Shown here: positions 14,419-34,514 of the stretch, piece by piece
Position numbering within the stretch: the first letter of the stretch is position 1
Layout of the letters: the number at the start of each line of letters is the position of its first letter
Assembly: GCA_041480905.1 (NCBI GenBank)
Contig: JBGPAW010000001.1
Location: forward strand, 1 to 34,514
Length of the DNA: 34,514 nt
Direction of reading: 5' to 3'
DNA from: Phycisphaerae bacterium
GTDB lineage: Bacteria > Planctomycetota > Phycisphaerae > UBA1845
Made by a program: the position numbers and the translations under genes
The notes under the pieces: model-generated
Databases searched by the model: none
What the model was told of the DNA's origin: nothing
What the model saw: the letters and a program-made list of their open reading frames with translations, nothing else

Positions 14419-15627
14419 ATGCCCACTTATGCCTACAGAGCAATCGGTCCTGACGGCAAAGCCGTCGAGGGTACGCTCACGGCTGAAAACCAGCAGACCC
14501 TGCTGCGCATGCTGGACGAGGAGTCCTTGTTTCCGGTCTCGGTCAGCGAGGGAGGTCGCGCCGGCCGGCGGATGATCGGCACCGGTCGCAAACGGGTCAA
14601 GCTTCGCCACGTGATCGCATTCTACAACCAGATGGCGGACCTGCTTCGGGCCGGCGTGCCGATGCTCCGCACGTTGGACACCCTGGCCCGCCTGACGACG
14701 AACGCGGTGTTGGCCGAAGTGCTCAAAGAAGTCCGGGAAGACGTCGCCGGGGGGACAACCCTGGCGGAGTCGATGGCCAAACATCCTAACGCGTTCCACC
14801 CGCTGCACACCTCGATGATCCGGGCGGGCGAAGCCGGCGGTTTCCTGGAGGATGTATTGCACCGGCTGGCGGCGTTTTCAGAGCGGCAAGACGAACTGCG
14901 CGGCAAACTGGTCGGCTCGATGATCTACCCGTGCATCCTGGTCCTGGCCGGCGGTGCCATCGTGACCCTACTTATGGTGTTTGTGGTGCCCAAGTTCCGC
15001 ATCTTCTTGCGGGAAGAGCATTTCAACTTCCTCACCAAGATTGTTTTTGGGGTCTCGGACTCTTTGCAGGCGCATTACGCGGTGCTGCTGGCGGCGGTGG
15101 CGGCGGTGCTGCTGGCCATTTGGGGGTTCCAGCGCACGGCGCAGGGACGGCTCCTGTGGGCCAAGTTCCAGCTCAAAGCGCCCGGCGTCGGAAAAATATA
15201 CACGATGGTGGCGGTTTGCCGCTTCTGCCGCATCCTGGGCACGCTGTTGCACAACGGGGTGCCCATCCTGCAAGCGCTGAAGATCTCCAGAGACTCCGCG
15301 GGTAACGTGGTCCTCGCGGAGGCGATCGACAGAGCCGGCGAAAACGTCAAGAAGGGGGATACTTTGTCCAGACCGCTGGCGGCCAGCGGGCTATTCCCGC
15401 TGGACATTCTGGCCATGATGACGGTGGCGGAAGAGAGCAACACGCTGGATACGATGCTGGTCGACGTGGCGGACACCAACGAAGCGCGTACCTCGCGGAA
15501 AATCGACCTGGCGGTCCGTCTGGTGGAACCTATTCTGCTGGTGTTCATGGCCGGATTGGTGCTGGGCATCGCCCTGGCTTTGCTGCTCCCCATCCTGACC
15601 ATGAGTTCACGGGGGATGAGTCTGTAA
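14419..15627 (+). CDS. gspF: Type II secretion / type IV pilus platform protein GspF/PilC family
   Basis: 402-aa ORF. MPTYAYRAIGPDGKAVEGTLTAENQQTLLRMLDEESLFPVSV is the classic GspF N-terminus. It has two T2SSF repeats and three predicted TM segments. Confidence 0.9.
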   Translation: MPTYAYRAIGPDGKAVEGTLTAENQQTLLRMLDEESLFPVSVSEGGRAGRRMIGTGRKRVKLRHVIAFYNQMADLLRAGVPMLRTLDTLARLTTNAVLAEVLKEVREDVAGGTTLAESMAKHPNAFHPLHTSMIRAGEAGGFLEDVLHRLAAFSERQDELRGKLVGSMIYPCILVLAGGAIVTLLMVFVVPKFRIFLREEHFNFLTKIVFGVSDSLQAHYAVLLAAVAAVLLAIWGFQRTAQGRLLWAKFQLKAPGVGKIYTMVAVCRFCRILGTLLHNGVPILQALKISRDSAGNVVLAEAIDRAGENVKKGDTLSRPLAASGLFPLDILAMMTVAEESNTLDTMLVDVADTNEARTSRKIDLAVRLVEPILLVFMAGLVLGIALALLLPILTMSSRGMSL

Positions 15628-15676
15628 AGATGCGAAGAAGGTCCTGGTGTTCCGACACGCGTGATTTGACGGGCGT

Positions 15677-15732
15677 CCGGGAGGGCGAGGCTCCTGCCGA
15701 GCCGTGGCTCGCCGGGAGGCGCGCCCTCCCGG
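15677..15732 (+). promoter_or_regulatory. Nested or alternative GC-rich stem-loops in the gspF-gspG spacer
   Basis: CCGGGAGGGCG (15677..15687) is the perfect reverse complement of CGCCCTCCCGG (15722..15732). A second CCGGGAGG (15712..15719) can instead pair with CCTCCCGG (15725..15732), leaving a 5-nt loop. An inner CGAGC-CGTG-GCTCG hairpin lies between them. Confidence 0.6.
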
Positions 15733-15802
15733 AACCATCGCACGAGCCGTGCCGGACCACCAGGGAGAACAAACGGAGTTTCTAAGCCGAGGAGTTAGGG
15801 TC

Positions 15803-16258
15803 ATGTCGCGTCACAAGAGGAGATCGCGGGCAGGGTTTACGCTGCTGGAGGTTCTGCTGGTCATCGGCATCCTGGCCTTGCTGGCGGCGTTCGTGGTACC
15901 GGCGCTTTCGGGAGCCGGCGAAAGGGCCAGGATCGGCATTGCCCAATCCGAGATCGGTCGGAACGGACCGATCGCGGGGGCGCTCAAGCGCTACAAGTGG
16001 GACATCGGCAAATTCCCGGACACGGACGAAGGGTTGGCGGCCTTGTTCGAGCGGCCCAGCAGCGTCGACGAGGAGAGCAAGAAGTGGAACGGGCCTTATG
16101 TGGAGGGCAGCCCGGAAGACCTCAAAGATCCGTGGGGCAAGCCCTTCCAGTACCGCTTCCCCGGCGATGCCAACGAGAAGGAATACGATCTGTGGAGCTT
16201 CGGGCCCGACATGAAGGACAGCACCGACGACGACATCACCAGTTGGAAGCGGAAGTAG
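15803..16258 (+). CDS. gspG: Type II secretion major pseudopilin GspG
   Basis: ATG at 15803 is preceded by GGAG at 15791. The product starts MSRHKRRSRAG|FTLLEVLLVIGILALLAAFVVP, a prepilin leader with G-1, F+1 and E+5. The C-terminal T2SS-G signature is GPYVEG...DPWGKPFQYRFPGDANEKEYDLWSFGPDMKDSTDDDITSW. The track start at 15704 is a likely over-extension. Confidence 0.92.
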   Translation: MSRHKRRSRAGFTLLEVLLVIGILALLAAFVVPALSGAGERARIGIAQSEIGRNGPIAGALKRYKWDIGKFPDTDEGLAALFERPSSVDEESKKWNGPYVEGSPEDLKDPWGKPFQYRFPGDANEKEYDLWSFGPDMKDSTDDDITSWKRK

Positions 16259-16264
16259 TGAGTA

Positions 16265-16292
16265 GCTGTCAGCTTTCAGCTAACAGCTAAGA
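16265..16292. repeat. Tandem heptad repeat AGCTGTC AGCTTTC AGCTAAC AGCTAAG, 6 nt after the gspG stop
   Basis: Read directly from the sequence: four consecutive 7-nt units, each starting with the palindromic AGCT. Related arrays lie at 19038..19065 and 31251..31278. Confidence 0.85.
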
Positions 16293-16317
16293 CCATTGCG
16301 CTGCCGAGATGGCGTAA

Positions 16318-17286
16318 ATGACTCATCAACGATGTCATTATGGAGCCAGGCAAGGCCGCTCCCTGACGGTCGCGGTTCGGACACGCAAGCCAAGACCGCT
16401 CCCTGACGGTCGCGGTTCGGAAAGGCAATCCGCAATCCTTGACATCCTCGACGCCATCCGGCGTCGAGCACGTCAAGGACAGGTCCGCAATCCGCGATTC
16501 ACGGAGCCTTCGCGGCTCGACCGGTCATTCACGCTGTTGGAGGTTCTGCTGGTCATCGGGTTGCTGACGGTCCTGGCCGCAATGGTCATGCCGAACCTGT
16601 TAGGGCAGATCCTGGGGGAACGGCTGCCAAGGTCGGCCAAGCAGTTACGGTCGCTGGTGCAGTTGACGCGGGCGAACGCGATGCTGGACGGCAAGCGTTA
16701 CCGGCTGCGGTTCCCCCGCCAAGACGAGCTGGACAACGAAGGGACGGACGTGCAGCCGATCGTGGAATGCGAAGAGGAGCCGTTTCGGGCTCCGGGGATA
16801 TACGTGGCGGTGACGGCGGCGTGGGCCCAGGGCGAGACGCTGCTGGAGGGGGTGTGGTGCGTCAAGGTGCGCCTGGCCAAACCCACGACCGAACAGTTGC
16901 TGCGTAATTTCGAGGACGTGCGCGCGGACCTGAACGAAGACGAGCAAGAGGCGGACCCGTTCTATCAGGAGTTCATCGACGACTTCGAGAAGGACTACCC
17001 ACCGCTGGTGTTCGAGCCGGACGGGACGAGCGAGTGGGCCACGTTCGTCGTCAGCGAGGCCCCCCGCGGCACCGACTCGAAGGCCCTGGCGGACTACAAA
17101 CGGATCGAGGTGATCTACGACGGTCTGACCGGGTTGGCGTGGTTGCAGCGGCCGTTTTACGAAGAGGAATTGAACATGCTGGTGGAGCACAACTGGCCGC
17201 CGGTGTTGCGGAAGGATTTTCTGCGGGCCGAGCCGCTGACCGAGAACGAGGTCATCGAGATTCAGGAAAGTCTGGTGCGGAAATGA
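16318..17286 (+). CDS. Minor pseudopilin, GspH-like; 5' boundary uncertain
   Basis: The prepilin-type hydrophobic N-terminus SFTLLEVLLVIGLLTVLAAMVMP is followed by a GspH-like SAKQLRSLVQLTRANAMLDGKRYRLRF. The only in-frame ATG/GTG/TTG upstream of this motif is ATG 16318. That start gives a 66-aa leader translated through the repeat-filled spacer. Residue -1 is Ser, not Gly. Confidence 0.65.
   Translation: MTHQRCHYGARQGRSLTVAVRTRKPRPLPDGRGSERQSAILDILDAIRRRARQGQVRNPRFTEPSRLDRSFTLLEVLLVIGLLTVLAAMVMPNLLGQILGERLPRSAKQLRSLVQLTRANAMLDGKRYRLRFPRQDELDNEGTDVQPIVECEEEPFRAPGIYVAVTAAWAQGETLLEGVWCVKVRLAKPTTEQLLRNFEDVRADLNEDEQEADPFYQEFIDDFEKDYPPLVFEPDGTSEWATFVVSEAPRGTDSKALADYKRIEVIYDGLTGLAWLQRPFYEEELNMLVEHNWPPVLRKDFLRAEPLTENEVIEIQESLVRK
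16351..16421. repeat. Two copies of a 31-bp REP-like GC-rich repeat (16351..16381 and 16391..16421)
   Basis: CAAG[G/A]CCGCTCCCTGACGGTCGCGGTTCGGA occurs twice with 1 mismatch and a 40-bp period. Each unit can fold as GACCG-CTCCCTGA-CGGTC or ACCGC-loop-GCGGT. Confidence 0.85.
16425..16500 (+). repeat. 16-bp interrupted hairpin (16437..16478) flanked by GCAATCC heptads and 9-bp direct repeats CCGCAATCC
   Basis: The hairpin is CCTTGAC-ATC-CTCGACGCC-ATCC-GGCGTCGAG-CAC-GTCAAGG. GCAATCC GCAATCC lies at 16425..16438 and GCAATCC GCGATTC at 16487..16500. CCGCAATCC occurs at 16430..16438 and 16485..16493. Confidence 0.8.
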
Positions 17287-18158
17287 AGCGTGGGTTCATG
17301 CTGCTGGAGGTGGTGGTGGCGGTCGGCATCCTGGCGGTGGGGATGGCCTTTATCGGCATGCAGATTCAATACGCCTCGCGTCATGCCCGCGAGTCCGAGC
17401 GTACGATGCGGACGTTGTTGCTGGCCGAGTCCAAGCTCACGGAGCTGGACGCGGGGCTGATCGTGCCCGAAGAGAAGCTCGAGGCGACGTTCGGCGCGGT
17501 GTTTCCGGATTACGGCTGGCGGTTGGAGATGAAGCCGACCGCGACGCCGGAGTTGAACCACCTCACCTTGGAAATCCTGTACCAGGCCCGCCAAGACGTC
17601 AACGAGGAATTCCGGTTCGACGAGGCCGAGGTCGTGCAACGCCTGTACACCTTGCGCGCGACGCCCCGTCCCCTCAACCTGGTGAATGACTTCGGCATGC
17701 CCGAGGAGCAGGCGGACAAGTTGACCGAGCAGTTGGCCGGCGTGGGTGACGGCGGTCTCGATCCGCGTAACTTGAATCCGGCGCTGTTCGCCCAGATGGA
17801 CCTGGAGCAGTTGCTGGAGGTAGCCCCGCCGCTCCTGGAAGCTTTCGGCATAAACATGGAAGAATTGATGCAGATGCTCCCCGAGGACCTGCGTCAGATG
17901 GTGGAGGACGCTCTGGCGGAGAGTCGGACCTCGACCACGACGGGCCCAGCAGAGGGCGGTGTGGGGGCGGGGGCGGGGAGCGGTTCGGGGAAGAGTCCTG
18001 GTGGGGGGGCCGGCCCAGGAGGCGGTCAGGGGTCGGTCAGGCGTCCCGGGGAGGGCACGGGTCGGCCGCCGGGTACGGTCACCGGTCAGAACCGGCGTCC
18101 GCCGCGAGGCCAGGGACGCGGCCCCAACCCGGGGGCAAGCTCGGCGTCGGATAAATAG
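17283..18158 (+). CDS. Minor pseudopilin, GspI-like, with a long C-terminal extension and a Gly/Pro/Arg-rich tail
   Basis: ATG 17283 overlaps the upstream stop (ATGA at 17283..17286). The product starts MKRG|FMLLEVVVAVGILAVGMAFIG. The GspI-like core is ~120 aa (...WRLEMKPTATPELNHLTLEILY). A ~170-aa acidic helical region plus the GAGAGSGSGKSPGGGAGPGGGQG...RRPPRGQGRGPNPG tail follows. The track ORF start at 17034 is an over-extension into the upstream gene. Confidence 0.7.
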   Translation: MKRGFMLLEVVVAVGILAVGMAFIGMQIQYASRHARESERTMRTLLLAESKLTELDAGLIVPEEKLEATFGAVFPDYGWRLEMKPTATPELNHLTLEILYQARQDVNEEFRFDEAEVVQRLYTLRATPRPLNLVNDFGMPEEQADKLTEQLAGVGDGGLDPRNLNPALFAQMDLEQLLEVAPPLLEAFGINMEELMQMLPEDLRQMVEDALAESRTSTTTGPAEGGVGAGAGSGSGKSPGGGAGPGGGQGSVRRPGEGTGRPPGTVTGQNRRPPRGQGRGPNPGASSASDK

Positions 18159-18160
18159 TC

Positions 18161-19018
18161 GTGGCACGGCGTGTGGACAAACCGGTTCGTGGTCGGGCGG
18201 GAGGGTTCACCTTGCTGGAGGTGGTGCTGGCGATGTCCATCTTCACCGTGGTGAGCGGGGTGATGTACTGGTTCTTCTGGAATTCGCTGAGCGTCACGGA
18301 ACAGGAGACGGCCCAGGCGCGCAACGTGCAACTCATCCGCGTGGTGCTGGACCGGCTGGCGCAGGAAATCCGGCAGGCCGACGGTTTCGTGCCCGGTTAC
18401 GGGGCGGGGATCATCGGATACAAGCACGCCATTTCGATCAACACCACGGTCCTACCGGACAAGAAACTGATGTACCCGCGTTCCATTAAGGACCAACAAC
18501 AAGTGGGTCAGTTCGACGTCGAGGAGGTCCGCTACTACATCGGGTGGGACGAGGAGAACCTGGACGCGGAGGGCAATCCGCGGGCGTTGGGGCTGGTGCG
18601 GCGGGAGCGGAAGACCTTGCTCCAGGAAGTGGTGATCCGGGGCGACGAGCAAGCGGACACCGGTAACCAGGAACAGGCCGTCGCGATCAAGGAAGAACTC
18701 TACGCCCCGGAGCTCAAGTACATCGAGTTCAAGTACTTTGACGGCGCCACCTGGTGGGATGACTGGGAGATCACGCAGGGCAACGCCTTGCCGCAGATCA
18801 TCCGGGTGACGGTGGGGTTTGAGCCGGTGCTGCCCAAGGATGAGGAAATGAAACTGATGGAGGACGACTTTTTGCGGGACGAGGCCGAGTTGGTGCCCCT
18901 GGCCCCGGACCGCTTCGCCATGTTCATCCGCGTGGTGCAGGCGGATACGTTTTTCGGCTCGCGTCTGACGCGCGAGTCCTCGGCGCTGATGAACTCGGGG
19001 GAGAACAAGGGGTTCTAA
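18161..19018 (+). CDS. Minor pseudopilin, GspJ-like
   Basis: GTG start 2 nt after the upstream stop. ...RGRAGG|FTLLEVVLAMSIFTVVSGVMYWFF is a prepilin motif. It is followed by ARNVQLIRVVLDRLAQEIRQA, typical of GspJ-type pseudopilins. 285 aa. Confidence 0.7.
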   Translation: MARRVDKPVRGRAGGFTLLEVVLAMSIFTVVSGVMYWFFWNSLSVTEQETAQARNVQLIRVVLDRLAQEIRQADGFVPGYGAGIIGYKHAISINTTVLPDKKLMYPRSIKDQQQVGQFDVEEVRYYIGWDEENLDAEGNPRALGLVRRERKTLLQEVVIRGDEQADTGNQEQAVAIKEELYAPELKYIEFKYFDGATWWDDWEITQGNALPQIIRVTVGFEPVLPKDEEMKLMEDDFLRDEAELVPLAPDRFAMFIRVVQADTFFGSRLTRESSALMNSGENKGF

Positions 19019-19037
19019 GAAACGTCGAAACGCCGAA

Positions 19038-19065
19038 AGCTGATAGCTGAGAGCTGATAGCTTAT
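19038..19065. repeat. Tandem heptad repeat AGCTGAT AGCTGAG AGCTGAT AGCTTAT, 20 nt after the gspJ-like stop
   Basis: Read directly from the sequence. On the minus strand it reads ...ATCAGCT CTCAGCT ATCAGCTTTCGGCG. That is the same CAGCT-heptad family as 16265..16292, in inverted orientation. The last unit overlaps ATG 19064. Confidence 0.85.
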
Positions 19066-20611
19066 GCAGGATCGCGGGTGCCAAGTTGGTTTCGTTGGTG
19101 GACGGCCGCAGAGGGACGGTGCCGGTAGGCGCGGACTGATCCTTCCGGTCGTGCTGCTGATCCTGGCGCTGCTCGCGCTGCTGGCGGCCAGCTTCGCCTT
19201 CCAGGTCAACGCGGATTCCGCCGCCACCCGGGCGCTGGTGGAGAGAATGCAGACCCGGCTGGCGGCGGAGGCGGGTTTCCAGTACGTAGCCTTGGTGCTG
19301 CGGGATCACCTCGAGGACGTGAACGCCTGGTACGATAACGAAGAGAAGTTTCGCGGCGTGGTGGTGTGGTCGGCCACCGGCGGGCTGTCCACCTTCGGCG
19401 CGGTGGAAAAGTCGGACACCCAGAGGAGCCAAGCTAAGGATAAAAACAGCGTCGCCCCGGCCTATCGCTTCAGCGTTGTCGCGGATGACCCCAACGACGA
19501 TCAGGTCAAAGTTCGCTATGGAATCACCGACGAGGCGTCCAAACTGAACATCAACACGGCCACGGCGGCCCAGTTGACCCGCCTGATCGCCCAGGTCGTC
19601 CCACCGGAGGTTCAGGTGGAGCCGCTGGTGGACGCTCTGCTGGACTGGCGCGACCCGGACGATACCGTGAGTTCCAACGGCGAGGGAGGCGGCGCGGAAA
19701 GCGACTACTACCGGTCCTTGAAGGTGCCGTATCGGTGCAAGAACGCCCCGTTCGACACGGTCGAGGAGCTGCTGATGGTCCGCGGGTTCACCGGGCAGAT
19801 TCTCTACGGGGAAGATGCGGACCGGAACGGGCTGCTGAGTCCCAACGAAGACGACGGGAATGTGACCTTCCCCCCCGACAACGCCGACGGAGCGCTCAAT
19901 CGGGGGCTTTATCCCTACATTACGGTTCACTCGCGGGAGTTCAACCGGGCCAACGACCGCAAGCCGCGCGTGGTGCTGGTGGGCGGCGGATCGAACACGC
20001 GCTTGGAGCTGGAACCCTTCTTCAGCGCGGAGGAGGCGGATTATCTGGTGGCACGGGCGGCGGCGACGGGGGAGTCCCGGCCAACGTCCCTCACCGCGTT
20101 CTTGGAGACGGCTTCGACCAACGGTCTGGTAAGCCCGTTTATGCTGGAGGATTTTCCGCGCATCGTGGACCGCTGCACGCTGGATCCTTCGCCGGAACTC
20201 CGCGGTCTGATCAACATCAATACCGCGCCGCCCGCCGTGCTGCGCTGTTTGGAGGGATTGACCGCTGAGGACGTCAACAACATCGTCCAGAAACGGGCGA
20301 CCTTGAGCGCCGAGACCAAACAGACCCCCGCCTGGCTGCTCACCCAAGGGGTGCTGGACCAGGAGAAATACGACGCGGTGGCGGAGGGGATCACCGCCCG
20401 CGGGCTACAGTTTACAGCCGAGGTGGTCGGATACGCCGATCACCTCGGGGTGCGGGCTCGCTTCCAGATTATTTTCGGAATGCGTGGCCCGGTGCCGCAA
20501 ATCCTGTACTATCGCGATCTGACCAACCTGGGAGTGCCTTATCCACTGACCCGCGAGGAAGAAGAAACAGGTGGTTATGCCCATGGGCTGGGTGGAAAGA
20601 CAACTGGTTAG
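19064..20611 (+). CDS. gspK: Type II secretion minor pseudopilin GspK-like
   Basis: 515-aa ORF with the hydrophobic N-terminus RRGLILPVVLLILALLALLAASFAF. GspK hallmarks are YGITDEASKLNINTATAAQLTRL, FDTVEELLMVRGFTGQILYG and GLININTAPPAVLRCLEGLTAEDVNNIVQKR. No clear SD precedes ATG 19064. Confidence 0.8.
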   Translation: MQDRGCQVGFVGGRPQRDGAGRRGLILPVVLLILALLALLAASFAFQVNADSAATRALVERMQTRLAAEAGFQYVALVLRDHLEDVNAWYDNEEKFRGVVVWSATGGLSTFGAVEKSDTQRSQAKDKNSVAPAYRFSVVADDPNDDQVKVRYGITDEASKLNINTATAAQLTRLIAQVVPPEVQVEPLVDALLDWRDPDDTVSSNGEGGGAESDYYRSLKVPYRCKNAPFDTVEELLMVRGFTGQILYGEDADRNGLLSPNEDDGNVTFPPDNADGALNRGLYPYITVHSREFNRANDRKPRVVLVGGGSNTRLELEPFFSAEEADYLVARAAATGESRPTSLTAFLETASTNGLVSPFMLEDFPRIVDRCTLDPSPELRGLININTAPPAVLRCLEGLTAEDVNNIVQKRATLSAETKQTPAWLLTQGVLDQEKYDAVAEGITARGLQFTAEVVGYADHLGVRARFQIIFGMRGPVPQILYYRDLTNLGVPYPLTREEEETGGYAHGLGGKTTG

Positions 20612-22157: not shown

Positions 22158-22181
22158 CGCCGCGGGGTCGGTGAATCGACC

Positions 22182-23501: not shown

Positions 23502-23562
23502 CGGCGAGAAGCACCGTCCAGGACGCGAGGCGAGGTCGCGCCCGTAATGAAGGAGACGACCC

Positions 23563-26500: not shown

Positions 26501-29500
26501 TGATCGTCGTGGCCCCGGTCCAGATGATGGAGCCCGTGCGTAAGTTGATCGAGCGGCTGGACCGCCCCGATCGCGCGCGGGTGATGAAGACGGTCACGCT
26601 GGAAAAGGCCGACCCCAAGGAGATGGTGACCACCGTTCGAGCGCTGCTCTCCAGTCGTGGGGCGCTGCCGGCGGCGCCGACGACGGCGCCGGCCCGACCG
26701 GGCGGTCAACCTCCCGGAAGAGGTCGAGCGGCGCCCCCGCAACGGCCTCAAGCCGGCGAGACGGAAACCGTGACCGTTGTGGAAGCGCCGGGCGGGTCCG
26801 CCATTCTGTTGAGCGGGTACGAGGATGACGTCGCCCGGGTGGAACAGTGGATCAAGGACCTGGACGAGGCGGCCAAGAGCGGGCGGGACATCAAGATTTA
26901 CGCGCCCAAGAACGTCGCCGTCGAGGATTTCGCCGATGCGGTGATGACGCTGGTAGACTCCGGCGGCGGAGCGGCGGCCGCACCGCCCAAACCTAAAGGC
27001 GGCAAGGAAGGGGAGAGTCTCTTTGACATGGACCTTTTCAGCAAAGGCGGGCCGCGGCGCGGCAAGGACATCTACTTGGTGACCGACACCTGGGCCCGCA
27101 CCATGCTGGTCAGCGCCATGCCGTCGAAGATTCGCGAGATTGATCGGTTGTACGAGGTGTACGAAGGCAAGGAGGGCGAGGAGCCCCAGATGCCCGTCAG
27201 CAAGCCGCAACCCTACGAGATCTACACACTCAAGAATCGCAAGAGTGCTTATGACGCGGTCTGGGATCTGGAATCGTACATTGATAAGCTCTGGCCCGAT
27301 CCGAGCAACAAGCCGAAGGTGGATTACATCCCCTTCACCCCGGACCTCATTATCCGGTGTCGTCCCGAGGACATGCAGGGCGTCAAGGACCTGATCGAGA
27401 AATACGTCGACAAGCCGGGCGAGAAAACGACGCTCGAAGAACGAACGGCTTACGAGGTGATCCAGTCGCAGGGGATTACCGCACGCGATCTGGCCCGGCT
27501 GGTCCAGTCGCGCGTCGGCCCCGATAAGGTGCATCTGCAGGAGATCAGCGCCGCGGATCAAGACTACATCAAGAAGGTGGAGGAAATCACGCCGTGCGTG
27601 CTGCCGGTCTGCGCGGTGCAAGGGATGCGCGCCGTGGCTTGCGGAATGGCCGACGAACCTGCCAAGTCCACCACCCAGCCCGCGGACCTGAACTCACCAG
27701 CGTTCAACGAGCAGATGAAAATGAAACAAGACCTGCTGCGGAGCCTCTCGGATAAAACCGCCTCCGGCGGTGAGGCGGCGACGTCGCAGCCTGCCGGCGC
27801 CGAAGTCGGGCCGGGTACTCCGGCCGGCCAGCCGGCCCCGGCGACAGAGGCCGCGGGACCCGAGCAGGTGCTCACCATCGCGCCGGACGACGAGAAAGGC
27901 GTGGTGGTGATCAAGGGCACCAAGCAGGAGGTTGCCGAGCTGAAAGACGTCATCGAGAAGATCGTGGAGGAGTTGCAGAAGGTGCCGCAACCGCCGGACA
28001 TCCGCGTGTTCCGTGTGAAGTTCGTAGACGTGAACACGGCCGCCGACATTCTCGAAGCGATGTTCAACGCGCCGCGCCAGCGGAACCTGACTCCGCAACA
28101 GATTCAACAGATGCAGCAGTTGCAGATGCTGCAACAACAACAGCAGCAACAACGGCAGCAGCGTCAGCCGCAGCAACCCCCCCAGGCCGGGCAAGAAGAG
28201 GACAAGGGCAAGGGTAAGCAGCGTAAGGAGGGCGAGGAGGCGCAGCAACCGCAAACGCCGCAACAAGAGCCCGGTCAAATCCGCGTCTACCCCGACGCGC
28301 GCACGCACACGCTGATCATCCGGGCAAGTCCGGAACAATACCCCCCGATCATCAAGCTGCTGGCCACGGTCGACAAGAAAGGGACCGCCGCTGACTTCCG
28401 CATCTACGCGCTCAAGCGGCTGAACGCCGCCGAGGTGGAACAAAAGCTGAAGGAGATGCTCGGATTGGAAGGGCGGTCGGCCCGCGCCTCGCAGCCTCGT
28501 CCGACGACGCCGGGCGGTCGGCCCGGCGTGCCGGTTCAGAACCCGCAGGGGCAGCCCATAGAGTTCATGATGGACATGGGCGGCGAATCCCTCTCCCTCA
28601 CCGGCGCCGAACGCGTCACTATCTCCAGCAACCCCGCGACGAACACGATCATGGCCATGGCCCCAGAGAAGACCTTGGATCTGATCGGGCAACTCATCGA
28701 CCAACTGGAGGAGCAGGAAGTCCCACTGTGGGTGACCAAGACGTATGAGTTGAAGCATGCCGACGCCGCGGACGTGGCCGCGCAGTTGGAGAAAACGTTC
28801 AGCGGCAAGAGTCAGGGCAAAGGAGTCGAAGGCTATGATCCGTCCGACGTGAATCGGCCCACGTTCATCCCCGACGCGCGGATGAACAGCATCACCGTGC
28901 GGGTGCTGGAACTGGACCTGCCCAAGATCGAGCCGCTGATCGAGCAATTCGACCGCGAGAGCCGCGACGACAAGCCCAGGTACATCAAGCTGCAGTACGC
29001 CAAGCCCAGCGAGGTGGCCAAAAAGCTGCAAGAGGCCTTTGCCGGGGTGGGCGCGGGCAAGGGCGGAAAAAAGAGCAAGATCCAGATCACCGGCGACGAC
29101 GGGAGCATGCAGTTGATCGTGATCGCTCCGCCGGACACGTTCGCTGACCTGCAGGACATGGTCGCCAAGCTCGACGTGGAACGGACCAACCTGGAGTTCC
29201 GGACCTTCTCCCTCACCTACGCCCGGGCGCCCGAGGTGCTGCGCCAGATGACCGAGCTCGTCCGTGTACTCATCCAGACCGGGCAGAAGAGCGGCGTCGA
29301 TCTGGGCGTGTTCAGTGCCGTGGCCGACGAGCCCACCAACGCGCTCGTCGTCGCGGGTGAGCCGACCATCTTCCCCATCGTGGAAGGCGTGCTCAAGAAG
29401 ATCGACGTGCCGCCGCCCGAGCCGGTAGCCCTTGAAACGCGCATTTACCGGCTGGTGTCCGCCCAAGCGGAGGACGTGGCCAACACGATCAACCGGCTGT

Positions 29501-31245
29501 TCGGGCAGGTGCGCGGCAAGGGCGGGGCCGAGCCCGCCCGGGCCGAGCCCAACCCCAGCACCAACACCGTGCTGGTCCGAGGCACCAAGAGCCAGCAGGA
29601 GGAAATCTTCAACCAGGTCATCAAACCGCTGGACGAGTTCGCCGAGCAACCGATCAACCTCAAGCAGGCGGTGATCGACCTGCAATACGCCAAGGCGGAC
29701 GAGGTGGCCAACTACCTCAACGAGTGGTTCCGCAACCAGCAGCAGACGATCCGGGGCGCGGGGATCAAGGGCATCAACCCGCTCGATTTTACGGTCTCCA
29801 TCACACCCGAGGTGGCGAGCAACAAACTGCTGGTGACGGCCAACGACAAGAATCTCGAGCTCATCCGGCAGCGCGTGGCGGACGTGGATCGCAAGGAGTT
29901 CGGGGACCTGACGGCGCGGGTGACCATGCCGTACGCGCTCATGAACGCCGACCCCAACGCCGTGGCGCAGATCGTGAGCCGGCATTTCCAGCCGACCGGC
30001 GGCAAGATCGCGGAACGGGACCGCGTGGACGCGGCTCCGGAGGTCGCCACCATGCGCGTCGTAGTGACGGCCAGTCAGCAAAACCAGGAAAAAATCGCCG
30101 CGCTCATCGAGCAGTTGGACAAGGACAGCGTCGTGACGCGCCCCACGCACGTGGTCGAGTTGCACAACAGCGACGCCGCGGCGGCGGCCCGGGCGTTGCA
30201 GGAGATGTTCGTGCAGGGACGCGCGGGGCCCCGCGGCCAGCAGACCGTCTCGATCTCCAACCCGCAGGGCAGCAATTCACTGCTGATCCGAGCGAATGAG
30301 AAGGAGTTGGCCGAGATTCAGGCGGTCATCACCCAGATGGAAGCAACCGGGACCGCCGGCGGCGGCGAGATCAAGATCATCCCGCTCAAGTACACCGACG
30401 CCGAGGAGACTCGGGTCATCCTGGAGGAATACCTGCGCAAACCCGGCGCCCGCGGCGGGGGTCGGGGCGGCGGAGGCGGGGCCGAGTTGGTGGGCGACTT
30501 GCGGATCAGCGTTTCCACCCAGAACAACTCGCTGATTCTGTCGGGGAACGCCGAACAACTCGCCCAGGTCACCGAAGTGGTGGCCCGCATCGACGTGGAG
30601 GTGGAAGGCGCCGGCAACGTGCCCAAGATCATCCGGCTGGAGCACGCTCAGGCGTCGGCCATCCAGCCCCAATTGGAGGAACTGTTCAAACAGCAGCCGG
30701 GTCGGCGTTCGCCGGGCGGCGGAGGCGCCGCCCTCCAGCCGGTGATCGTGGCCGACGACGCGAGCAATTCGCTGATCGTGCGGGCCAACCCGGCGGATTT
30801 CAACGCCATCGAACGGTTGGTGAAGGACTTGGACAGCGAGGGAGCGGCGGGCGCCGGCATTCGGATCGTCCGCGTGGCTCCCGGGGTGAATGTGGTGGAC
30901 ATGGCGGCGATGCTCGAAGACAGCTTCAATGCCAGTCTCAAGAGCCAGCCGGGCGGTGGCGGTCGCGGGCGACCTGTCCAGCAGTTGACCATCACGCCCG
31001 ACACACGCACCAACAGCTTGATCCTGGCGGGCGCCCCGGCGATGTTCGACGATATCGAAGCCACCATACGGACCCTGGAAAAGATGGGTCCGCAGGGCGG
31101 CCAAGTCACTCGGATCATCCGTACAAAAAATGCGGATGCGCGGGACGTAGAGTCTGTTATTCGGGACCTGACGGGAGATAATACCGGCACGAAGAGTTCC
31201 GGTCGCGGGGGCGGTTCGCGCGGAAGCCGCCCACCGCGGAAGTAG
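23563..31245 (+). CDS. Giant (2560 aa) secreted protein composed of ~25-28 tandem secretin N-domain / ring-building-motif repeats; no secretin beta-barrel domain recognisable
   Basis: GGAG precedes ATG 23563. The signal-like N-terminus is RLIGPVVLSLALGAGLPTGRA|DEP, followed by a Pro/Lys-rich ~90 aa. Then ~70-100-aa units recur with the GspD N-domain hallmark (beta-strand + x(L/F)K(Y/H)xxAxE(V/T)xxxL... + D/NxxxNxL(I/V)(I/V)xAxxxxxxxIxxLIxxLD). Examples: IPLKYTDAEETRVILEEYL...STQNNSLILSGNAEQLAQVTEVVARIDVE; IRLEHAQASAIQPQLEELF...DDASNSLIVRANPADFNAIERLVKDLD; TLQYADPAEVKTVLDAL...SGRNLLIVVAPAQEMAEIAALITELDVD. It ends in an RGG-rich tail without a GspD/PilQ C-domain-like segment. Confidence 0.85.
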   Translation: MRQLRSSIRHVVTWARSARRLIGPVVLSLALGAGLPTGRADEPPAPVRKGGEPARGTTTEPAGARPSRPKPPKTSGVATKPKPSPVTPPGKTPPRPTPEGDKNPPPEGAGSAGTGPEGEPLESGIDATYEQMLKPAEERRYSISIQEGSYADLLDAFSRMSGLAILGDTPAGTVTYVSTEEMDYTAALSRMRKILFNHPEKFYLWREGNTLEVFRVTEAQRKMKPDRIHTSVHAFLAAELDEMEIVLVLYTPETGRVADLESLRDFMPDYVRIAPYRDKNALTILALARDVKKYLELVGIFETAEGDPRQLKALPIRYVLPSEAVEMLYQFMPALAESVSAPSAPPPKPRKGQHPAEASLESARGHGIDLIPYDAVRKLFVRGMPDRIAEIENYLEIIDVQRGPGDNPVIVPLKYTRVEQLLTLLRPFYTGEPAAQAPQPPAGGKGKRAPVVKAVTNESIITDTIEIYANPANNTLIVMADEEQLTKLRMYVSLLDIPSQDQTVRVKLEHAEPEAVAALTVEIAPILGPNTAVGLLVKVDPAGDGVLVIGNPQGVELAKRIIADLDQPGEGGPPAIHAYPCENAKPSALIGLLTNLDQQSAGAAPAAPPQPPGPAKKGQPRAARRPVQGGTRYYGDDATGLLYVICTDSEWEESYLPLLKKLDQQAQTDLKVVVVPVAHGDPQKIIESLVQALSGGQRGAAIPPPTMLPHPEGVMVVGASAAVVEQIRKLVAELDVDPGIERRTFTLQYADPAEVKTVLDALVVQGAGPRITPRRGGKGQPAPPPAPGAPSVQIVQSGRNLLIVVAPAQEMAEIAALITELDVDPLNLRVKVYDFPVGSNVLEIAQTLSSFYPGSAAVPVAEATEKGKPRPRQMTAPGDIRFIPQPSAHKILVSAPADMYPDIEEKIALLRPEAGIAGPMVEFFEVAHLDPQTLTGVLEPLLETKYQELVDTGVIPEKPPGKGPAAKPVSVTPDPRGDRVIVVAPVQMMEPVRKLIERLDRPDRARVMKTVTLEKADPKEMVTTVRALLSSRGALPAAPTTAPARPGGQPPGRGRAAPPQRPQAGETETVTVVEAPGGSAILLSGYEDDVARVEQWIKDLDEAAKSGRDIKIYAPKNVAVEDFADAVMTLVDSGGGAAAAPPKPKGGKEGESLFDMDLFSKGGPRRGKDIYLVTDTWARTMLVSAMPSKIREIDRLYEVYEGKEGEEPQMPVSKPQPYEIYTLKNRKSAYDAVWDLESYIDKLWPDPSNKPKVDYIPFTPDLIIRCRPEDMQGVKDLIEKYVDKPGEKTTLEERTAYEVIQSQGITARDLARLVQSRVGPDKVHLQEISAADQDYIKKVEEITPCVLPVCAVQGMRAVACGMADEPAKSTTQPADLNSPAFNEQMKMKQDLLRSLSDKTASGGEAATSQPAGAEVGPGTPAGQPAPATEAAGPEQVLTIAPDDEKGVVVIKGTKQEVAELKDVIEKIVEELQKVPQPPDIRVFRVKFVDVNTAADILEAMFNAPRQRNLTPQQIQQMQQLQMLQQQQQQQRQQRQPQQPPQAGQEEDKGKGKQRKEGEEAQQPQTPQQEPGQIRVYPDARTHTLIIRASPEQYPPIIKLLATVDKKGTAADFRIYALKRLNAAEVEQKLKEMLGLEGRSARASQPRPTTPGGRPGVPVQNPQGQPIEFMMDMGGESLSLTGAERVTISSNPATNTIMAMAPEKTLDLIGQLIDQLEEQEVPLWVTKTYELKHADAADVAAQLEKTFSGKSQGKGVEGYDPSDVNRPTFIPDARMNSITVRVLELDLPKIEPLIEQFDRESRDDKPRYIKLQYAKPSEVAKKLQEAFAGVGAGKGGKKSKIQITGDDGSMQLIVIAPPDTFADLQDMVAKLDVERTNLEFRTFSLTYARAPEVLRQMTELVRVLIQTGQKSGVDLGVFSAVADEPTNALVVAGEPTIFPIVEGVLKKIDVPPPEPVALETRIYRLVSAQAEDVANTINRLFGQVRGKGGAEPARAEPNPSTNTVLVRGTKSQQEEIFNQVIKPLDEFAEQPINLKQAVIDLQYAKADEVANYLNEWFRNQQQTIRGAGIKGINPLDFTVSITPEVASNKLLVTANDKNLELIRQRVADVDRKEFGDLTARVTMPYALMNADPNAVAQIVSRHFQPTGGKIAERDRVDAAPEVATMRVVVTASQQNQEKIAALIEQLDKDSVVTRPTHVVELHNSDAAAAARALQEMFVQGRAGPRGQQTVSISNPQGSNSLLIRANEKELAEIQAVITQMEATGTAGGGEIKIIPLKYTDAEETRVILEEYLRKPGARGGGRGGGGGAELVGDLRISVSTQNNSLILSGNAEQLAQVTEVVARIDVEVEGAGNVPKIIRLEHAQASAIQPQLEELFKQQPGRRSPGGGGAALQPVIVADDASNSLIVRANPADFNAIERLVKDLDSEGAAGAGIRIVRVAPGVNVVDMAAMLEDSFNASLKSQPGGGGRGRPVQQLTITPDTRTNSLILAGAPAMFDDIEATIRTLEKMGPQGGQVTRIIRTKNADARDVESVIRDLTGDNTGTKSSGRGGGSRGSRPPRK

Positions 31246-31250
31246 CGGTC

Positions 31251-31278
31251 AGCTTTCGGCCATCAGCTACCGGCCAAA
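31251..31278. repeat. Degenerate heptad array AGCTTTC GGCCATC AGCTACC GGCCAAA, 5 nt after the giant-gene stop
   Basis: Read directly from the sequence. The 7-nt period alternates the palindromic tetramers AGCT and GGCC. GGTCAGCTTTCGGCC resembles TGTCAGCTTTCAGCT at 16269 and the minus-strand ATCAGCTTTCGGCG at 19031..19044. It can also fold as CTTT(C)GGCC...GGCCAAAG. Confidence 0.7.
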
Positions 31279-31336
31279 GGATGGCAGGCTGGGGTCGGGA
31301 ACTCGCAATTTTGAACTCGGAAGCGAGGGTCTGGTG

Positions 31337-34300
31337 ATGAACACGATCGCCGTTTCCTTGATCGTAGGGTGGTTGGGCATTTCGGCCCTGGCCCAGGAGC
31401 AACCCGCCGGCGAAAGTACGGCGCTCTCCGAACGGGAACAGGTCGACGCGCTGATGGACGAGGCGCTGGCCCGTCAGGACGAAGCCAAGCCGCGGCCTCC
31501 GGCGCGGCGCGACACCAGGTCCGCCGACCGCAGGGAGGCTGCGCCCACCGCACCCCTCGCCACGACCAACGGCGCAGAGGAAGGCACGCCCCCCGAGCGC
31601 GCCGGTCAGCCGCTCCCGTCCATGAGCGGGGTCAACCTCTCCGGCGCCAACGTGGACATCCAGACCGTGGGGTCGGGCACCATCATCATCACCGGCAACG
31701 AGAGCGACGTAGCCATGATCGAGGCCTTGGTGGATCTGCTCGACCGCCAGGGCCCCCGGAACGAGATGCGGGTGGTCACCCTGGAACAGGCGGGCGCGAA
31801 GCGCGTGGCGGAGAAGGTGCAGTCCATCTATTCGAAGCTCAAGGCCCGGCCGGAGGACCAAGTGGCGTTGGTCGCGGTGACCGAAAGGGTGGTGGTGATC
31901 GCGGCGCCCGCCCATCTGATGGACGAAGTGCTCAACATCGTCAAGACCATCGACATCCAGGGCACATTCCCCAGCACCGCCAGCATGACCTTCCAGATCA
32001 AGCACCGCAAGGCCTCGGAAGCGGCGATCCAACTGAAGAAAGTCCTCGATGCCCTGCGCAAGAAAGCGGGCGAGGACGCCGGCCCCGAGGCCGAGATCAT
32101 CCCGCTCGACGCCAACAACACGATTCTGATCACGGCCCCGGAGAGCGAGCGTGCCAAGATTCAGGGCCTGCTGGATGCCATCGACGTGGAGCCCGCGGCG
32201 GGCTGGGGCGACGTCCTGCTGACCGTCTTCCCGCTGCGGAACAGCAAGGCGGAGGAGTTGGCCAAGACTATCAAGGAGCTGATTACGGCCCAGGCGGCGG
32301 CGGACAAGGCCAAACCGGGCGAGGAGCCGCTCCGCCGCCTGCGCATGGTGGTGCGGACGCCGGACGGTCAGCAGCGTGAGTTGCCGCCCTTGGACCTGGA
32401 GAAGCCCCTGAAGCTCATCGCGGACAAAGGGACGGAATCGCTGATCGTGGCGACGGTGGAGTCCAACGTCGCCCCGCTGGGTGAGATCGTGGACATTCTG
32501 GATGGCGTCCCCGGCGCCGAGGAAGTGGGCTGCCAGATTCTCCATCTGCGTTACGCCGACGCCGAGTCGGTTTCCAAGATGCTCGACGACATGTTCAAGA
32601 AGGGCAAGGACCTGCCCAAACCAGCCCCGGGCAGCGAGAGCAGTACGGCGGTCCCCGAAGGACCGATCGGAGAAGCTCTCTCCTACAACGTCACCCTGGT
32701 CACCGACCTGCGGACCAACACCCTGGTGGTGGCCGGCAAGGCGGCGCAGGTCGCGCTGGTCGCCGAGTTGGTGAACAAGATCGACGTACCCTCGGCCGCC
32801 ACCAAGTTCCCGCTGCGGCTGGTCCCCCTGGCCAATACCGACGCGACCCACATGGGCAAAATCCTCGAGGAACTCTTCAAGCAGCGGGCGGAATCGTTGG
32901 AGAAGAGCAACGCGGGCAAGTCCGTCGTCGAGCGGGAGAAGGTGTTCCTGGCCGTGGACATCCGCCGCAACGCGCTGATCGTCGCGGCCTCCGAGGAAAA
33001 CTACAACGAAATCCTGGAGATCACGGCCAAGCTCGACGGCGCCGGGCAACGGCTGATCGAGAACATCCGCATCATCAACTGCGCGAACACCTCCGCGGGC
33101 GACCTGGCTAAGAAAATCGAGGACCTGTGGAAGCGCAAGGCCGATCTGCGCAAGGAAGGGAAATTGCCCGCCGATCTGCCCGTCATCGTGGCGGATCAGC
33201 GGAGCAATGCGCTGGTGATCGCCTCGTCGGTGGAGGACTATGACGAGATCAAGCGGTTGGTCGATCGGCTGGAGAGCCAGCCGCTGGCCCCCATCGCCCA
33301 AATCCGGCTGATCGAGATCAAACACAACGACGCCTCCAAGATCAGTGAGATGCTCAAGAAGCTGTTTGAGGAGCGGATGAAGCAGCGCCTGATCGAGGGG
33401 CAGAAGGAGAACCCCGCCGATCGGGCGGCCTTCGCCGACGATCCGGCTACCAACACCATTCTGGTGGCTTCGTCGCAGGAGAACTACGACGAGATGATGC
33501 GGATCATCGCGGCCCTCGACACCGAGCTGGACGTGGAAGGTGTGGTCCAGTTCTTCGTCCTGCACAACGCCGAAGCGAGCACCGTGCAGAAGAAGATCGA
33601 CGACCTGTTCAAGGCCGGCATCTACAGCCCGACCAAGGGGCTGGACAGCAAGCTCATCCAGGAGCGCCAGAAAGTGACCGTGGTCGCCGACCCGCGCTCC
33701 AACGCGGTCATCGTCAGCGCCAGCAAGCCCAACCTGGCCATCGTCCAGAAACTGATCGAGGTGATGGACACGGAAGACGCGCCGCTGCTCCAGCAGGACA
33801 CGCGCGTGTTCGCGCTCGGGACGGCCGACGCCCTCAAGCTGGCCAAGATGCTCAAGGACCTCTTCGACGGCATGAAGAGCAGCGCCCCCGAGCCCGATCT
33901 GGTCCGCCCGCCGACCATCATCGCCGACGAGCGGAGCAACAGCCTGTTCGTGACCGGCTCGCGGGACAGTCTGAAGCGCTGCGACGACCTGATTGGTCGG
34001 ATTGAGGAGCAGAACGTGCAGCGCACGGCGGTGTTCCAGATCTATCCGCTCAAGCATTCCGCCGCCGCTCCGCTGGCCCAGAAGATGCAGGAGGCGTTCG
34101 ACAAGCGGGAAAAGAGCGGCGAGCAGAGCGCCCGCACCCCGATCTACATCATGGCGGACGAGAGCACCAACAGCCTGATCTGCAGCGCCTCCCGCGACGA
34201 TCAGGAACTGATCGCCAACTTGCTTACACTGTTGGACAAGCCGTCCAGCATTGCCAAGCAGTTCGAGATCTTCCCGCTGAAGGTGGCCAAGGCCCAGGGG

Positions 34301-34514
34301 CTGGCCGATCGGCTGGACAAGCTGTTCAAGAGCCAGGCCAAAGGGGGCGGCGGAGGCGGCGGACGGGCCGACGCCATCGCCGTCGAGCCGGACCCGCGCA
34401 CCAACGCGTTGATCGTCTGGGCCGCCCCGTCGCAGTTGGACAACGTCAAGGAGATCATCGCCAAGCTGGACACCCATGAGCCGGTGAAGGAAATGCAGAT
34501 GCGGGTCATCCGGC
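31337..34514 (+). CDS. Second secretin-like protein (GspD-family N-domain repeats), 3' end beyond the window (at least 1059 aa)
   Basis: Own translation from (GTG 31334) ATG 31337 gives MNTIAVSLIVGWLGISALA|QEQPAG..., a signal peptide. An open frame then runs to the window end with at least ~12 secretin-N repeats. Examples: MRVVTLEQAGAKRVAEKVQSIY...VTERVVVIAAPAHLMDEVLNIVKTID; ILHLRYADAESVSKMLDDMF...DLRTNTLVVAGKAAQVALVAELVNKID; IYPLKHSAAAPLAQKMQEAF...ADESTNSLICSASRDDQELIANLLTLLD; ...DPRTNALIVWAAPSQLDNVKEIIAKLD. It is missing from the ORF track because it has no stop in the window. The 1106-aa minus-strand ORF 31157..34477 is its shadow. Confidence 0.85.
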   Translation, partial: MNTIAVSLIVGWLGISALAQEQPAGESTALSEREQVDALMDEALARQDEAKPRPPARRDTRSADRREAAPTAPLATTNGAEEGTPPERAGQPLPSMSGVNLSGANVDIQTVGSGTIIITGNESDVAMIEALVDLLDRQGPRNEMRVVTLEQAGAKRVAEKVQSIYSKLKARPEDQVALVAVTERVVVIAAPAHLMDEVLNIVKTIDIQGTFPSTASMTFQIKHRKASEAAIQLKKVLDALRKKAGEDAGPEAEIIPLDANNTILITAPESERAKIQGLLDAIDVEPAAGWGDVLLTVFPLRNSKAEELAKTIKELITAQAAADKAKPGEEPLRRLRMVVRTPDGQQRELPPLDLEKPLKLIADKGTESLIVATVESNVAPLGEIVDILDGVPGAEEVGCQILHLRYADAESVSKMLDDMFKKGKDLPKPAPGSESSTAVPEGPIGEALSYNVTLVTDLRTNTLVVAGKAAQVALVAELVNKIDVPSAATKFPLRLVPLANTDATHMGKILEELFKQRAESLEKSNAGKSVVEREKVFLAVDIRRNALIVAASEENYNEILEITAKLDGAGQRLIENIRIINCANTSAGDLAKKIEDLWKRKADLRKEGKLPADLPVIVADQRSNALVIASSVEDYDEIKRLVDRLESQPLAPIAQIRLIEIKHNDASKISEMLKKLFEERMKQRLIEGQKENPADRAAFADDPATNTILVASSQENYDEMMRIIAALDTELDVEGVVQFFVLHNAEASTVQKKIDDLFKAGIYSPTKGLDSKLIQERQKVTVVADPRSNAVIVSASKPNLAIVQKLIEVMDTEDAPLLQQDTRVFALGTADALKLAKMLKDLFDGMKSSAPEPDLVRPPTIIADERSNSLFVTGSRDSLKRCDDLIGRIEEQNVQRTAVFQIYPLKHSAAAPLAQKMQEAFDKREKSGEQSARTPIYIMADESTNSLICSASRDDQELIANLLTLLDKPSSIAKQFEIFPLKVAKAQGLADRLDKLFKSQAKGGGGGGGRADAIAVEPDPRTNALIVWAAPSQLDNVKEIIAKLDTHEPVKEMQMRVIR

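Follow-up and report, generated by a model that had tools for sequence, protein, structure and literature searches.

A variant type II secretion gene cluster of Phycisphaerae with a predicted secretin of about 39 N domains split over two genes

We analyzed a contig of 34,514 bp from a Phycisphaerae bacterium (JBGPAW010000001.1, assembly GCA_041480905.1) and found that the genes from position 14419 to its end probably encode a lineage-specific structural core of a type II secretion system (T2SS), whose two-part secretin would form one very long periplasmic conduit. The striking feature of this T2SS variant is the secretin, with about 39 N domains that appear to be divided over two consecutive genes. 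An earlier note on this DNA, made from its letters alone, had taken the two genes for two secretins, D and D'; the domain content points instead to a single secretin split into a pore-less and a pore-bearing protein, an oddity that the note had missed. The window, as we call the analyzed DNA, is the entire contig and terminates inside the second of the two genes:

23563..31245, forward strand: pore-less giant N-domain protein (the giant), 2560 amino acids; 19 Pfam Secretin_N matches (614 bits), no PF00263.
31334..34514, forward strand: 5' part of D', 1060 codons, with the frame open to the window end; 11 Pfam Secretin_N matches.

From N to C terminus, the giant consists of a signal peptide, a proline-rich spacer, an N0-like region, about 24 tandem Secretin_N domains, half an N domain and a basic tail. 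A hidden Markov model (HMM) built from its own repeats placed 24 full domains end to end between amino acids 312 and 2509, and the family HMM matched the half domain at 2517-2555 with its positions 1-38. No secretin pore (PF00263) was found in the giant with Pfam, fewer than 60 residues lie beyond the last full N domain, and the alignment to the GspD model TIGR02517 spans model positions 30-334 only. In 16 unsplit complete orthologs, the N domains number 20-28 and the last one is followed by no more than about 70 residues, leaving no room for a pore, and the pore-less state recurred in about 70 representative clusters. Judged by its sequence, the giant lacks the pore that defines a secretin and is thus not a secretin itself. 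An exact-sequence look-up of the protein gave no match.

The array appears to be more than a run of interchangeable repeats. At most positions, domain i of the giant best matches domain i of its relatives, with an identity between same-position domains of 46-74% in a 66%-identical lineage and 25-60% in a 43%-identical one, while paralogous N domains within one giant are only about 25-35% identical. As the same-position conservation exceeds the similarity of the paralogs, we argue that the array is an ordered, selected stack.

The N-terminal part of D' carries a signal peptide, an acidic spacer, the second half of an N domain and 11 full Secretin_N domains; its first HMM match covers HMM positions 43-75 only. 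Over all 1060 amino acids, D' is colinear with and 71% identical to a 1691-amino acid ortholog on a 56-kb Joint Genome Institute contig (locus L007), which contains 13 Pfam Secretin_N domains and PF00263 at amino acids 1413-1581. The ortholog scored 706 bits with the GspD model TIGR02517 (cutoff 351) and 272 bits with the PilQ model (cutoff 284). Because our contig ends inside D', we infer from this colinear ortholog that D' carries the pore. L007 was retrieved by a metagenome scan seeded with the giant C terminus of a relative and is the one contig with a full D' and downstream genes. A search with the N-terminal 350 amino acids of D' returned two partial matches only, and a metagenome scan with the D' alignment gave pattern matches without a relative among them. 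D'-like N termini with a signal peptide of their own follow the giant in several lineages. No AMIN domain was matched among the proteins of the window and of L007.

The gene boundary cuts a single N domain in two: the giant closes with HMM positions 1-38 and the basic tail, and mature D' begins with positions 43-75. When joined into a chimera, the two halves scored as a full domain (42.7 bits, HMM positions 1-75). Of the 15 complete giants from the loci, 14 have the half-domain C terminus, as do 41-49 of the 54 pore-less representatives. Read from these domains, the giant and D' together are one secretin split over two genes.

Further evidence comes from relatives in which the two parts are joined. 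An exhaustive search with residues 121-1300 of the giant yielded 233 representative clusters at E <= 1e-30, and a domain census of the best 150 of these revealed two classes: pore-less proteins of 2200-3550 amino acids with 20-35 N domains, and about 40 single-chain secretins of 3400-5530 amino acids with 33-58 N domains and a C-terminal pore. One single-chain protein (P0216, HUW81391.1; Phycisphaerae, on the contig of locus L073) has 4066 amino acids, occupies the same operon position and aligns colinearly with the giant over its first part and with D' thereafter. It contains 38 N domains versus about 39 for the giant/D' pair (24 full, one complemented and 14 in D'). At the junction, around amino acids 2410-2450, an in-frame D'-type start with signal peptide (MRNNTMLASCLALAVLAQA) persists in the loop of the split domain. 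The longest single-chain secretins (P0204, P0205, P0212 and P0214; 5063-5532 amino acids) have 53-58 N domains and a pore, and a pore-less protein with 60 N domains also exists (P0209, 5437 amino acids). Internal, near-periodic runs of modules in the longest proteins suggest further lineage-specific lengthening.

Separate genes could also mean separate roles, with the giant acting as an independent periplasmic scaffold or adaptor, such as a very large GspC-like connector that links the inner-membrane platform to D', or as a wall anchor. Its own signal peptide and N0-like start would suit such a role, as would the lack of a canonical GspC in the cluster, and the T2SS-derived system of mitochondria has separate Secretin_N proteins without a proven channel role (PMC8134430). 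We nevertheless consider a scaffold unlikely: the single-chain relatives join a giant-type array covalently to the D' array and pore, the split lies within one domain and its halves are complementary, and a PilP-like domain fused to a PilO-like protein could already do the job of GspC.

In five loci (L051, L059, L075, L080 and L082), the giant is represented by two consecutive open reading frames (ORFs), which could reflect either further natural breaks in the chain or frameshift errors. The N-domain genes and their surroundings attract assembly gaps and contig ends, also in metagenome-assembled genomes (MAGs) released as complete chromosomes (CP070691.1, CP070718.1 and CP070827.1). Gaps of 100 Ns are located at about 20172-20271 in L004, at 962-1061, 7278-7377 and 12367-12466 in L025 and at 14725-14824 in L043, and the end of the window is placed likewise; with gaps piling up in these genes, the public gene models are often truncated. 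L004 (CP070691.1) had seemed to represent an operon ending after the giant without D', a case that we withdrew as a 100-N assembly gap cuts the giant there.

The split secretin is the last part of an array of ten co-directional, close-packed genes on the forward strand, extending from 14419 to the contig end, in the order gspF, gspG, H-, I- and J-like genes, gspK, PilM+PilN-like, PilO+PilP-like, giant and D' (more than 1060 amino acids, truncated). The features upstream of the giant are the following:

13995..14418, forward strand: mutS-gspF intergenic region, 424 nt; presumed promoter or leader, by its position only.
14419..15627, forward strand: gspF, inner-membrane platform protein, 402 amino acids; two Pfam T2SSF matches (194.8 bits).
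15803..16258 (ORF from 15704), forward strand: gspG, major pseudopilin, 151 amino acids; Pfam T2SSG (85 bits) and N_methyl.
16318..17286, forward strand: GspH-like minor pseudopilin, ORF of 322 amino acids; N_methyl at amino acids 68-91 and its place after gspG.
17283..18158, forward strand: GspI-like minor pseudopilin, 291 amino acids, motif KRG/FMLLEV; XpsI (36 bits) and a weak GspI match.
18161..19018, forward strand: GspJ-like minor pseudopilin, 285 amino acids, motif AGG/FTLLEV; N_methyl (26 bits), weak T2SSJ and weak TIGR01711 GspJ matches.
19064..20611, forward strand: gspK, minor pseudopilin, 515 amino acids; Pfam T2SSK_1st (61.8 bits), T2SSK (25.8 bits) and HHH_3.
20577..22157, forward strand: PilM, transmembrane segment/coiled coil and PilN-like periplasmic domain, 526 amino acids; Pfam PilM_2 (62 bits).
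22185..23501 (or from 22182), forward strand: predicted PilO-like and PilP-like fusion, 438 amino acids; structure model and Foldseek matches.

The tight, co-directional layout had been described before, and both the ORF coordinates and a direct reading of the sequence agree with it. The H-like and I-like genes share an ATGA overlap at 17283-17286, the I-like and J-like genes are separated by a 2-nt gap at 18159-18160, and gspK overlaps the PilM-PilN-like gene by 35-41 nt (20571/20577-20611; 35 nt with the start at 20577 and 41 nt with a GTG start at 20571). The secretin was also correctly described as coming last. It is, however, the C/D module alone that sits at the end; the core, (E)-F-G-H-I-J-K-L-like-M-like, follows the canonical order and is not rearranged.

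The filament genes are T2SS-type. Among NCBIfam models, GspF matches TIGR02120 GspF best; its 331.7 bits fall short of the equivalog cutoff (424) but exceed the 272 and 246 bits of the PilC models. Three short public contigs encode an identical GspF protein. GspG scored 115.5 bits with TIGR01710, above the cutoff of 88.85, and the PilA models match its N-terminal helix only. The gene callers place the gspG start at the ATG yielding 151 amino acids, and the prepilin motif RAG/FTLLEV, with G at -1, F at +1 and E at +5, can be read in the sequence. In GspK, three Pfam domains exceed their gathering scores, and NF037980 GspK matches with 97 bits, below its cutoff of 130. The motifs pointed out earlier, DPWGKPFQYRFPG...DLWSFGPD in GspG and KLNINTA in GspK, are present in the translations, and GspK contains ININTA as well. 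The earlier assignment of the pseudopilins to the T2SS type is thus borne out by GspG, above its TIGR01710 cutoff, and GspK, above its Pfam cutoffs, and extends to GspF and, in orthologs, to GspE and GspD.

The three proteins between GspG and GspK have prepilin leaders with G or S at -1, F at +1 and E at +5 and are encoded in the canonical order, but their family matches are weak, at 17-36 bits and all under the cutoffs. The GspH-like protein matches GspH, XpsH and the Verru_Chthon cassette protein D weakly across the N-terminal helix. As its prepilin motif lies at amino acids 68-91 of the ORF, the true start is probably further downstream; its orthologs have 260-278 amino acids. The position of the GspI-like gene is kept in 80 loci, and the protein ends in a low-complexity tail of about 80 amino acids, rich in Gly, Pro and Arg.

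The inner-membrane platform has a different affiliation. The 526-amino acid protein scored 62 bits with PF11104 (gathering score 27) and 88 bits with TIGR01175, under the cutoff of 133, and a profile of 43 homologs searched against known structures matched PilM at E 1e-21 to 1e-15, without a GspL match. In its AlphaFold2 (AF2) model, with a mean predicted local distance difference test (pLDDT) score of 85, residues 8-336 adopt a PilM fold, residues 356-426 form a helix and residues 430-518 an alpha/beta domain, and Foldseek matched PilM at E 6e-22 versus E 1e-9 for the cytoplasmic domain of EpsL/GspL. As modeled, the protein joins PilM to a PilN-like part in the manner of GspL: an actin-like cytoplasmic domain, a transmembrane segment and a periplasmic domain.

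The 438-amino acid protein gave no sequence match in Pfam, NCBIfam or the Protein Data Bank. In its AF2 model, residues 3-71 form a transmembrane/coiled-coil helix, residues 76-176 a ferredoxin-like abb-abb domain and residues 247-307 a beta-sandwich (domain pLDDT 65-87), for which Foldseek returned PilO (3jc8_Oa at E 2.9e-5; 2rjz; 5uvr), Amuc_1100 and PilP (2lc4, 2y4y and 2y4x) with a probability of about 1. A disordered C-terminal tail contains repeated, conserved LAGPPxELAGP motifs. With Pfam and NCBIfam, we found no GspL or GspM family match among the window proteins and neither a gspC gene nor an HR or PDZ match in the cluster. The PilP fold corresponds structurally to the HR domain of GspC, and the lack of a separate gspC would be explained by the fusion of such a beta-sandwich to the PilO-like protein. 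We propose the 438-amino acid protein as the equivalent of GspM and the GspC HR domain. The PilM-PilN and PilO-PilP fusions had been suggested from the sequence; the profile, AF2 and Foldseek matches to PilM, PilO and PilP support that suggestion.

Such a platform raises the question of whether the whole machine is of the type IVa pilus (T4aP) kind, building a surface fiber for adhesion or uptake, with the PilM/N/O/P-type proteins revealing its true affiliation. The platform matches PilM, PilO and PilP better than GspL, GspM and GspC, there are weak matches to Amuc_1101, Amuc_1100 and Amuc_1098 of a pilus-like cluster in Akkermansia, and the "T2SS" of Bacteroidetes groups with T4aP in published phylogenies (PMC6668835). 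We judge a pilus rather improbable all the same, given that the major subunit exceeds the GspG equivalog cutoff and resembles PilA in its N-terminal helix only, that GspK, a T2SS hallmark, is present, and that the secretin ortholog lies above the GspD and below the PilQ cutoff and GspE scores above PilB. Scans for Walker-A motifs and GspE, moreover, detected no pilT-type or second ATPase in the window or the 80 loci.

The motor itself is not linked to the cluster in this genome. Neither a T2SSE/PilB-type ATPase (ORF domain scan and tblastn with the GspE of a relative) nor a prepilin peptidase of the GspO/PilD type (Pfam domain scan) was detected in the window, so that the absence noted earlier for the region after mutS holds for the full 34.5 kb. 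Among the 48 loci with enough upstream DNA, gspE is located directly upstream of gspF in 16, including the closest genome relative (L008); the remaining ones have, like the window, unrelated genes upstream of gspF. The GspE orthologs contain Pfam T2SSE and MshEN, score 625-638 bits with TIGR02533 (cutoff 630) and score higher with it than with PilB. The adjacency in a third of the loci argues that the machine uses a T2SS-type ATPase whose linkage merely varies. The earlier note had concluded that the motor must be encoded elsewhere, which stands for this genome and not as a property of the machine. No gspE or gspO follows the secretin within the 4.8 kb after D' in L007, which is 66-71% identical, and no peptidase was found there or just upstream of gspE in 10 relatives, these places being occupied by housekeeping and unknown genes. 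This genome presumably encodes both gspE and the peptidase elsewhere; prepilin peptidases are often shared and unlinked (PMC6668835).

The cluster is not peculiar to this contig. In a locus scan with one genome per species, the same cluster was found in 80 species-level loci, nearly all from Planctomycetota and most of these from Phycisphaerae, and every locus of sufficient length contained F, G, H-like, I-like, J-like, K, PilM/N-like, PilO/P-like and the giant. This constant order indicates a clade-wide design and not a local rearrangement, and the description of the system as "hybrid, rearranged" was in this respect misleading. The PilM-like protein has 324 homologs of a uniform length of about 510-560 amino acids, the named ones coming from Planctomycetota/Phycisphaerae MAGs. 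Locus L069, from a MAG assigned to the cultured species Phycisphaera mikurensis, contains the operon from gspF to the PilM/N-like gene, where its contig stops. One full operon lies on a contig labeled "Alphaproteobacteria bacterium" (L021, JANQQE010000004.1), probably a binning or taxonomy error. In current databases, the genes carry no more specific names than "secretin N-terminal domain-containing protein", "PilM" or "hypothetical". A literature search on Planctomycetes and Phycisphaerae gave no description of this system, which does not prove that there is none, and a survey of the type IV filament superfamily leaves the Planctomycetes unmentioned (PMC6668835).

We propose the following model for the machine. 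Judging from the protein families and domain matches, GspE and the prepilin peptidase, presumably encoded elsewhere, would cooperate with GspF to build a pseudopilus from GspG, with the H-, I-, J- and K-like proteins at its tip. The platform would consist of the two fusions, with the PilM+PilN-like protein acting as GspL and the PilO+PilP-like protein as GspM and GspC. The PilP-like beta-sandwich probably binds the giant at its N-terminal, N0-like region; PilP with the N0 domain of PilQ is one model for such a contact, and GspC-HR with GspD-N0, as far as described in PMC3169554, is another. The giant would oligomerize into stacked rings of about 24 N domains that end in the half domain, and D' would supply the missing half, followed by about 14 N domains and the outer-membrane pore. 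With the half domains complementing each other, the two oligomers may dock end to end and form one conduit of about 39 stacked rings, through which the pseudopilus would push folded periplasmic cargo. Each ring in solved secretins measures 3-4 nm, and the conduit would then be roughly 100 nm long or more, which would fit a wide or variable planctomycete periplasm.

Several points weigh against this model. The pore domain of this genome's own D' lies outside the contig, as do its gspE and prepilin peptidase, which were not seen in the 34.5 kb. The H, I and J assignments are weak and draw on HMM matches of low score and on gene position, and ring formation, axial stacking and half-domain complementation are deduced from domain homology. 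With its internal start and signal peptide, the single-chain P0216 might still be made as two proteins. A length of about 100 nm also exceeds that of an ordinary periplasm. Enlarged periplasms have been reported for Planctomycetes (PMC7716846 and PMC11131199).

A broader version of the model is more tentative. The Phycisphaerae, and other Planctomycetota with single-chain forms of up to 58 N domains, may possess a secretin nanotube of 40-60 rings and about 100-200 nm that carries T2SS cargo across an enlarged or variable periplasm and is, in the lineage studied here, assembled from two polypeptides via the split N domain. If real, the nanotube would far exceed every known secretin channel in length and could correspond to an envelope structure already visible, though not yet assigned, in planctomycete micrographs.

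The conduit could in principle serve a different cargo, the machine exporting a polymer such as exopolysaccharide slime instead of folded proteins, with the long secretin as a nozzle. Planctomycetes are generally rich in surface glycans, but no polysaccharide synthesis or export genes are linked to the cluster in the window, nor consistently in the related loci, and an apparently full set of pseudopilus genes is present, making this function very improbable. That the giant is an assembly or annotation artefact or the decaying pseudogene of a once-single secretin gene is hardly credible: repeat-rich genes do break assemblies, as seen in the window end inside D', the 100-N gaps in L004, L025 and L043 and the few loci with the giant in two ORFs, but intact giant ORFs of 2400-2900 amino acids are found in 16 independent assemblies, the protein is represented by the 233 clusters, and its domain positions, terminal half domain and basic tail are conserved, as is the signal peptide of D' in several lineages.

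The window has a GC content of about 65%, and long ORFs on the reverse strand (31157-34477 and 27694-30165) were rejected as genes and read as by-products of this composition opposite the Secretin_N-encoding genes. An Rfam search of the mutS-gspF spacer and the window gave no family match, a forward-strand scan of the spacer no sigma-70-like site and a tRNA scan no tRNAs; promoter and terminator scans remained at chance level. The first 14 kb encode a response regulator with GGDEF and HD-GYP domains, a TrxB-like oxidoreductase, GcvT, a PKD-cyclophilin protein, PrfB, HtrA, a DUF3179 protein and MutS. The position of mutS (11358-13994) next to gspF is shared among the 80 loci only with the distant L028 (3-2336; MutS 54% identical), and the operon flanks are otherwise not conserved.

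Three of the neighboring observations deserve mention. The prfB gene (7788-8895, forward strand) shows the classical programmed +1 frameshift of release factor 2: ORF0 extends from the ATG at 7788 to the TGA in CTT TGA C (7854-7860), and the PCRF/RF-1 frame resumes at GAC 7858. This splitting of the frame explains why the Pfam match begins at profile position 12. The 592-amino acid protein at 5890-7668 (forward strand) combines K319L-like PKD and PKD domains with a cyclophilin-type peptidyl-prolyl isomerase, an uncommon combination, and may be secreted. Finally, there is a possible link to cyclic di-GMP, for which MshEN is a binding module: GspE carries MshEN at its N terminus in L008, L013, L049, L066 and L082, the response regulator with GGDEF and HD-GYP domains lies at 471-2156 (reverse strand) of the window, and a GGDEF protein is encoded 3' of D' in L007 (19557-20888).

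Among known systems, the cluster is closest in content to the canonical T2SS (Gsp/Pul/Eps/Xcp; gspC-D-E-F-G-H-I-J-K-L-M-O), with which it shares GspF, GspG, a row of four minor pseudopilins with putative H-, I- and J-like members and GspK at its end, a secretin that is GspD-type as judged by the D' ortholog, and the gene order from E to M, with GspE adjacent in a third of the orthologous operons. It differs in having PilM and a PilN-like part for GspL, one PilO+PilP-like protein for GspM and GspC, the secretin module last, gspE and gspO unlinked in this genome, and about 39 N domains over two polypeptides in place of N0-N3. The pseudopilins are also oversized (H-like ORF of 322, I-like of 291, J-like of 285 and GspK of 515 amino acids), canonical ones having roughly 120-330 amino acids. 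With the T4aP alignment complex PilM-PilN-PilO-PilP-PilQ of Pseudomonas, Myxococcus and Thermus, it has in common the sequence and fold of PilM, the PilO- and PilP-like periplasmic folds and the order M-N-O-P-secretin. Here, however, these four are combined into two fusion proteins, the filament genes are of the T2SS type without a PilA-type pilin, no PilT was found and the secretin ortholog scores as GspD and not as PilQ. The combination of a PilM/N/O/P-type platform with a T2SS-type filament, ATPase and secretin bears on the origin of the T2SS from T4aP-like ancestors.

The Amuc_1098-1102 cluster of Akkermansia muciniphila, a member of the PVC superphylum, shows weak likenesses: the Amuc_1101 family resembles the PilM-like protein (69 bits), Amuc_1100 structures resemble the PilO-like domain, and the Amuc_1098 family resembles the D' ortholog. 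The scores are far under the family cutoffs of 650-750 bits, and we know of no T2SS pseudopilin set or giant N-domain array in that cluster; we regard the likeness as a lead and not as membership. In the mitochondrial T2SS-derived system, separate GspDN1-3 proteins exist, and two of them each correspond to half an N domain (PMC8134430). Common to that system and ours are Secretin_N domains apart from the pore-bearing GspD and half domains at protein ends, but the mitochondrial proteins are small, of one or half a domain, eukaryotic and without N0 or GspC, whereas the bacterial protein has 2560 amino acids, about 24 domains and an N0-like start. The docking of two different oligomers through a split domain would be an assembly principle, with the mitochondrial half-domain proteins following the same pattern.

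To our knowledge, the number of periplasmic rings in the secretin channels examined to date ranges from three to six. Thermus thermophilus PilQ, with six stacked rings N0-N5, is among the largest characterized (PMC5745081). Like PilQ, the split secretin seems to lengthen its channel with added N-domain rings to span a wide periplasm; it differs in the number of N domains, about 39 and up to 58 in single-chain relatives versus six, in the splitting of the array and in belonging to a T2SS-type machine and not to one for type IV pili and DNA uptake. About 39 N domains are some six times those of the largest secretin channel studied so far and suggest an unusually long envelope-spanning tube. A conserved family whose members have from about 39 ring-building domains when split to 58 in a single chain would alter our view of the reach of a T2SS, and it would open a concrete molecular way into the unusual planctomycete envelope and periplasm.

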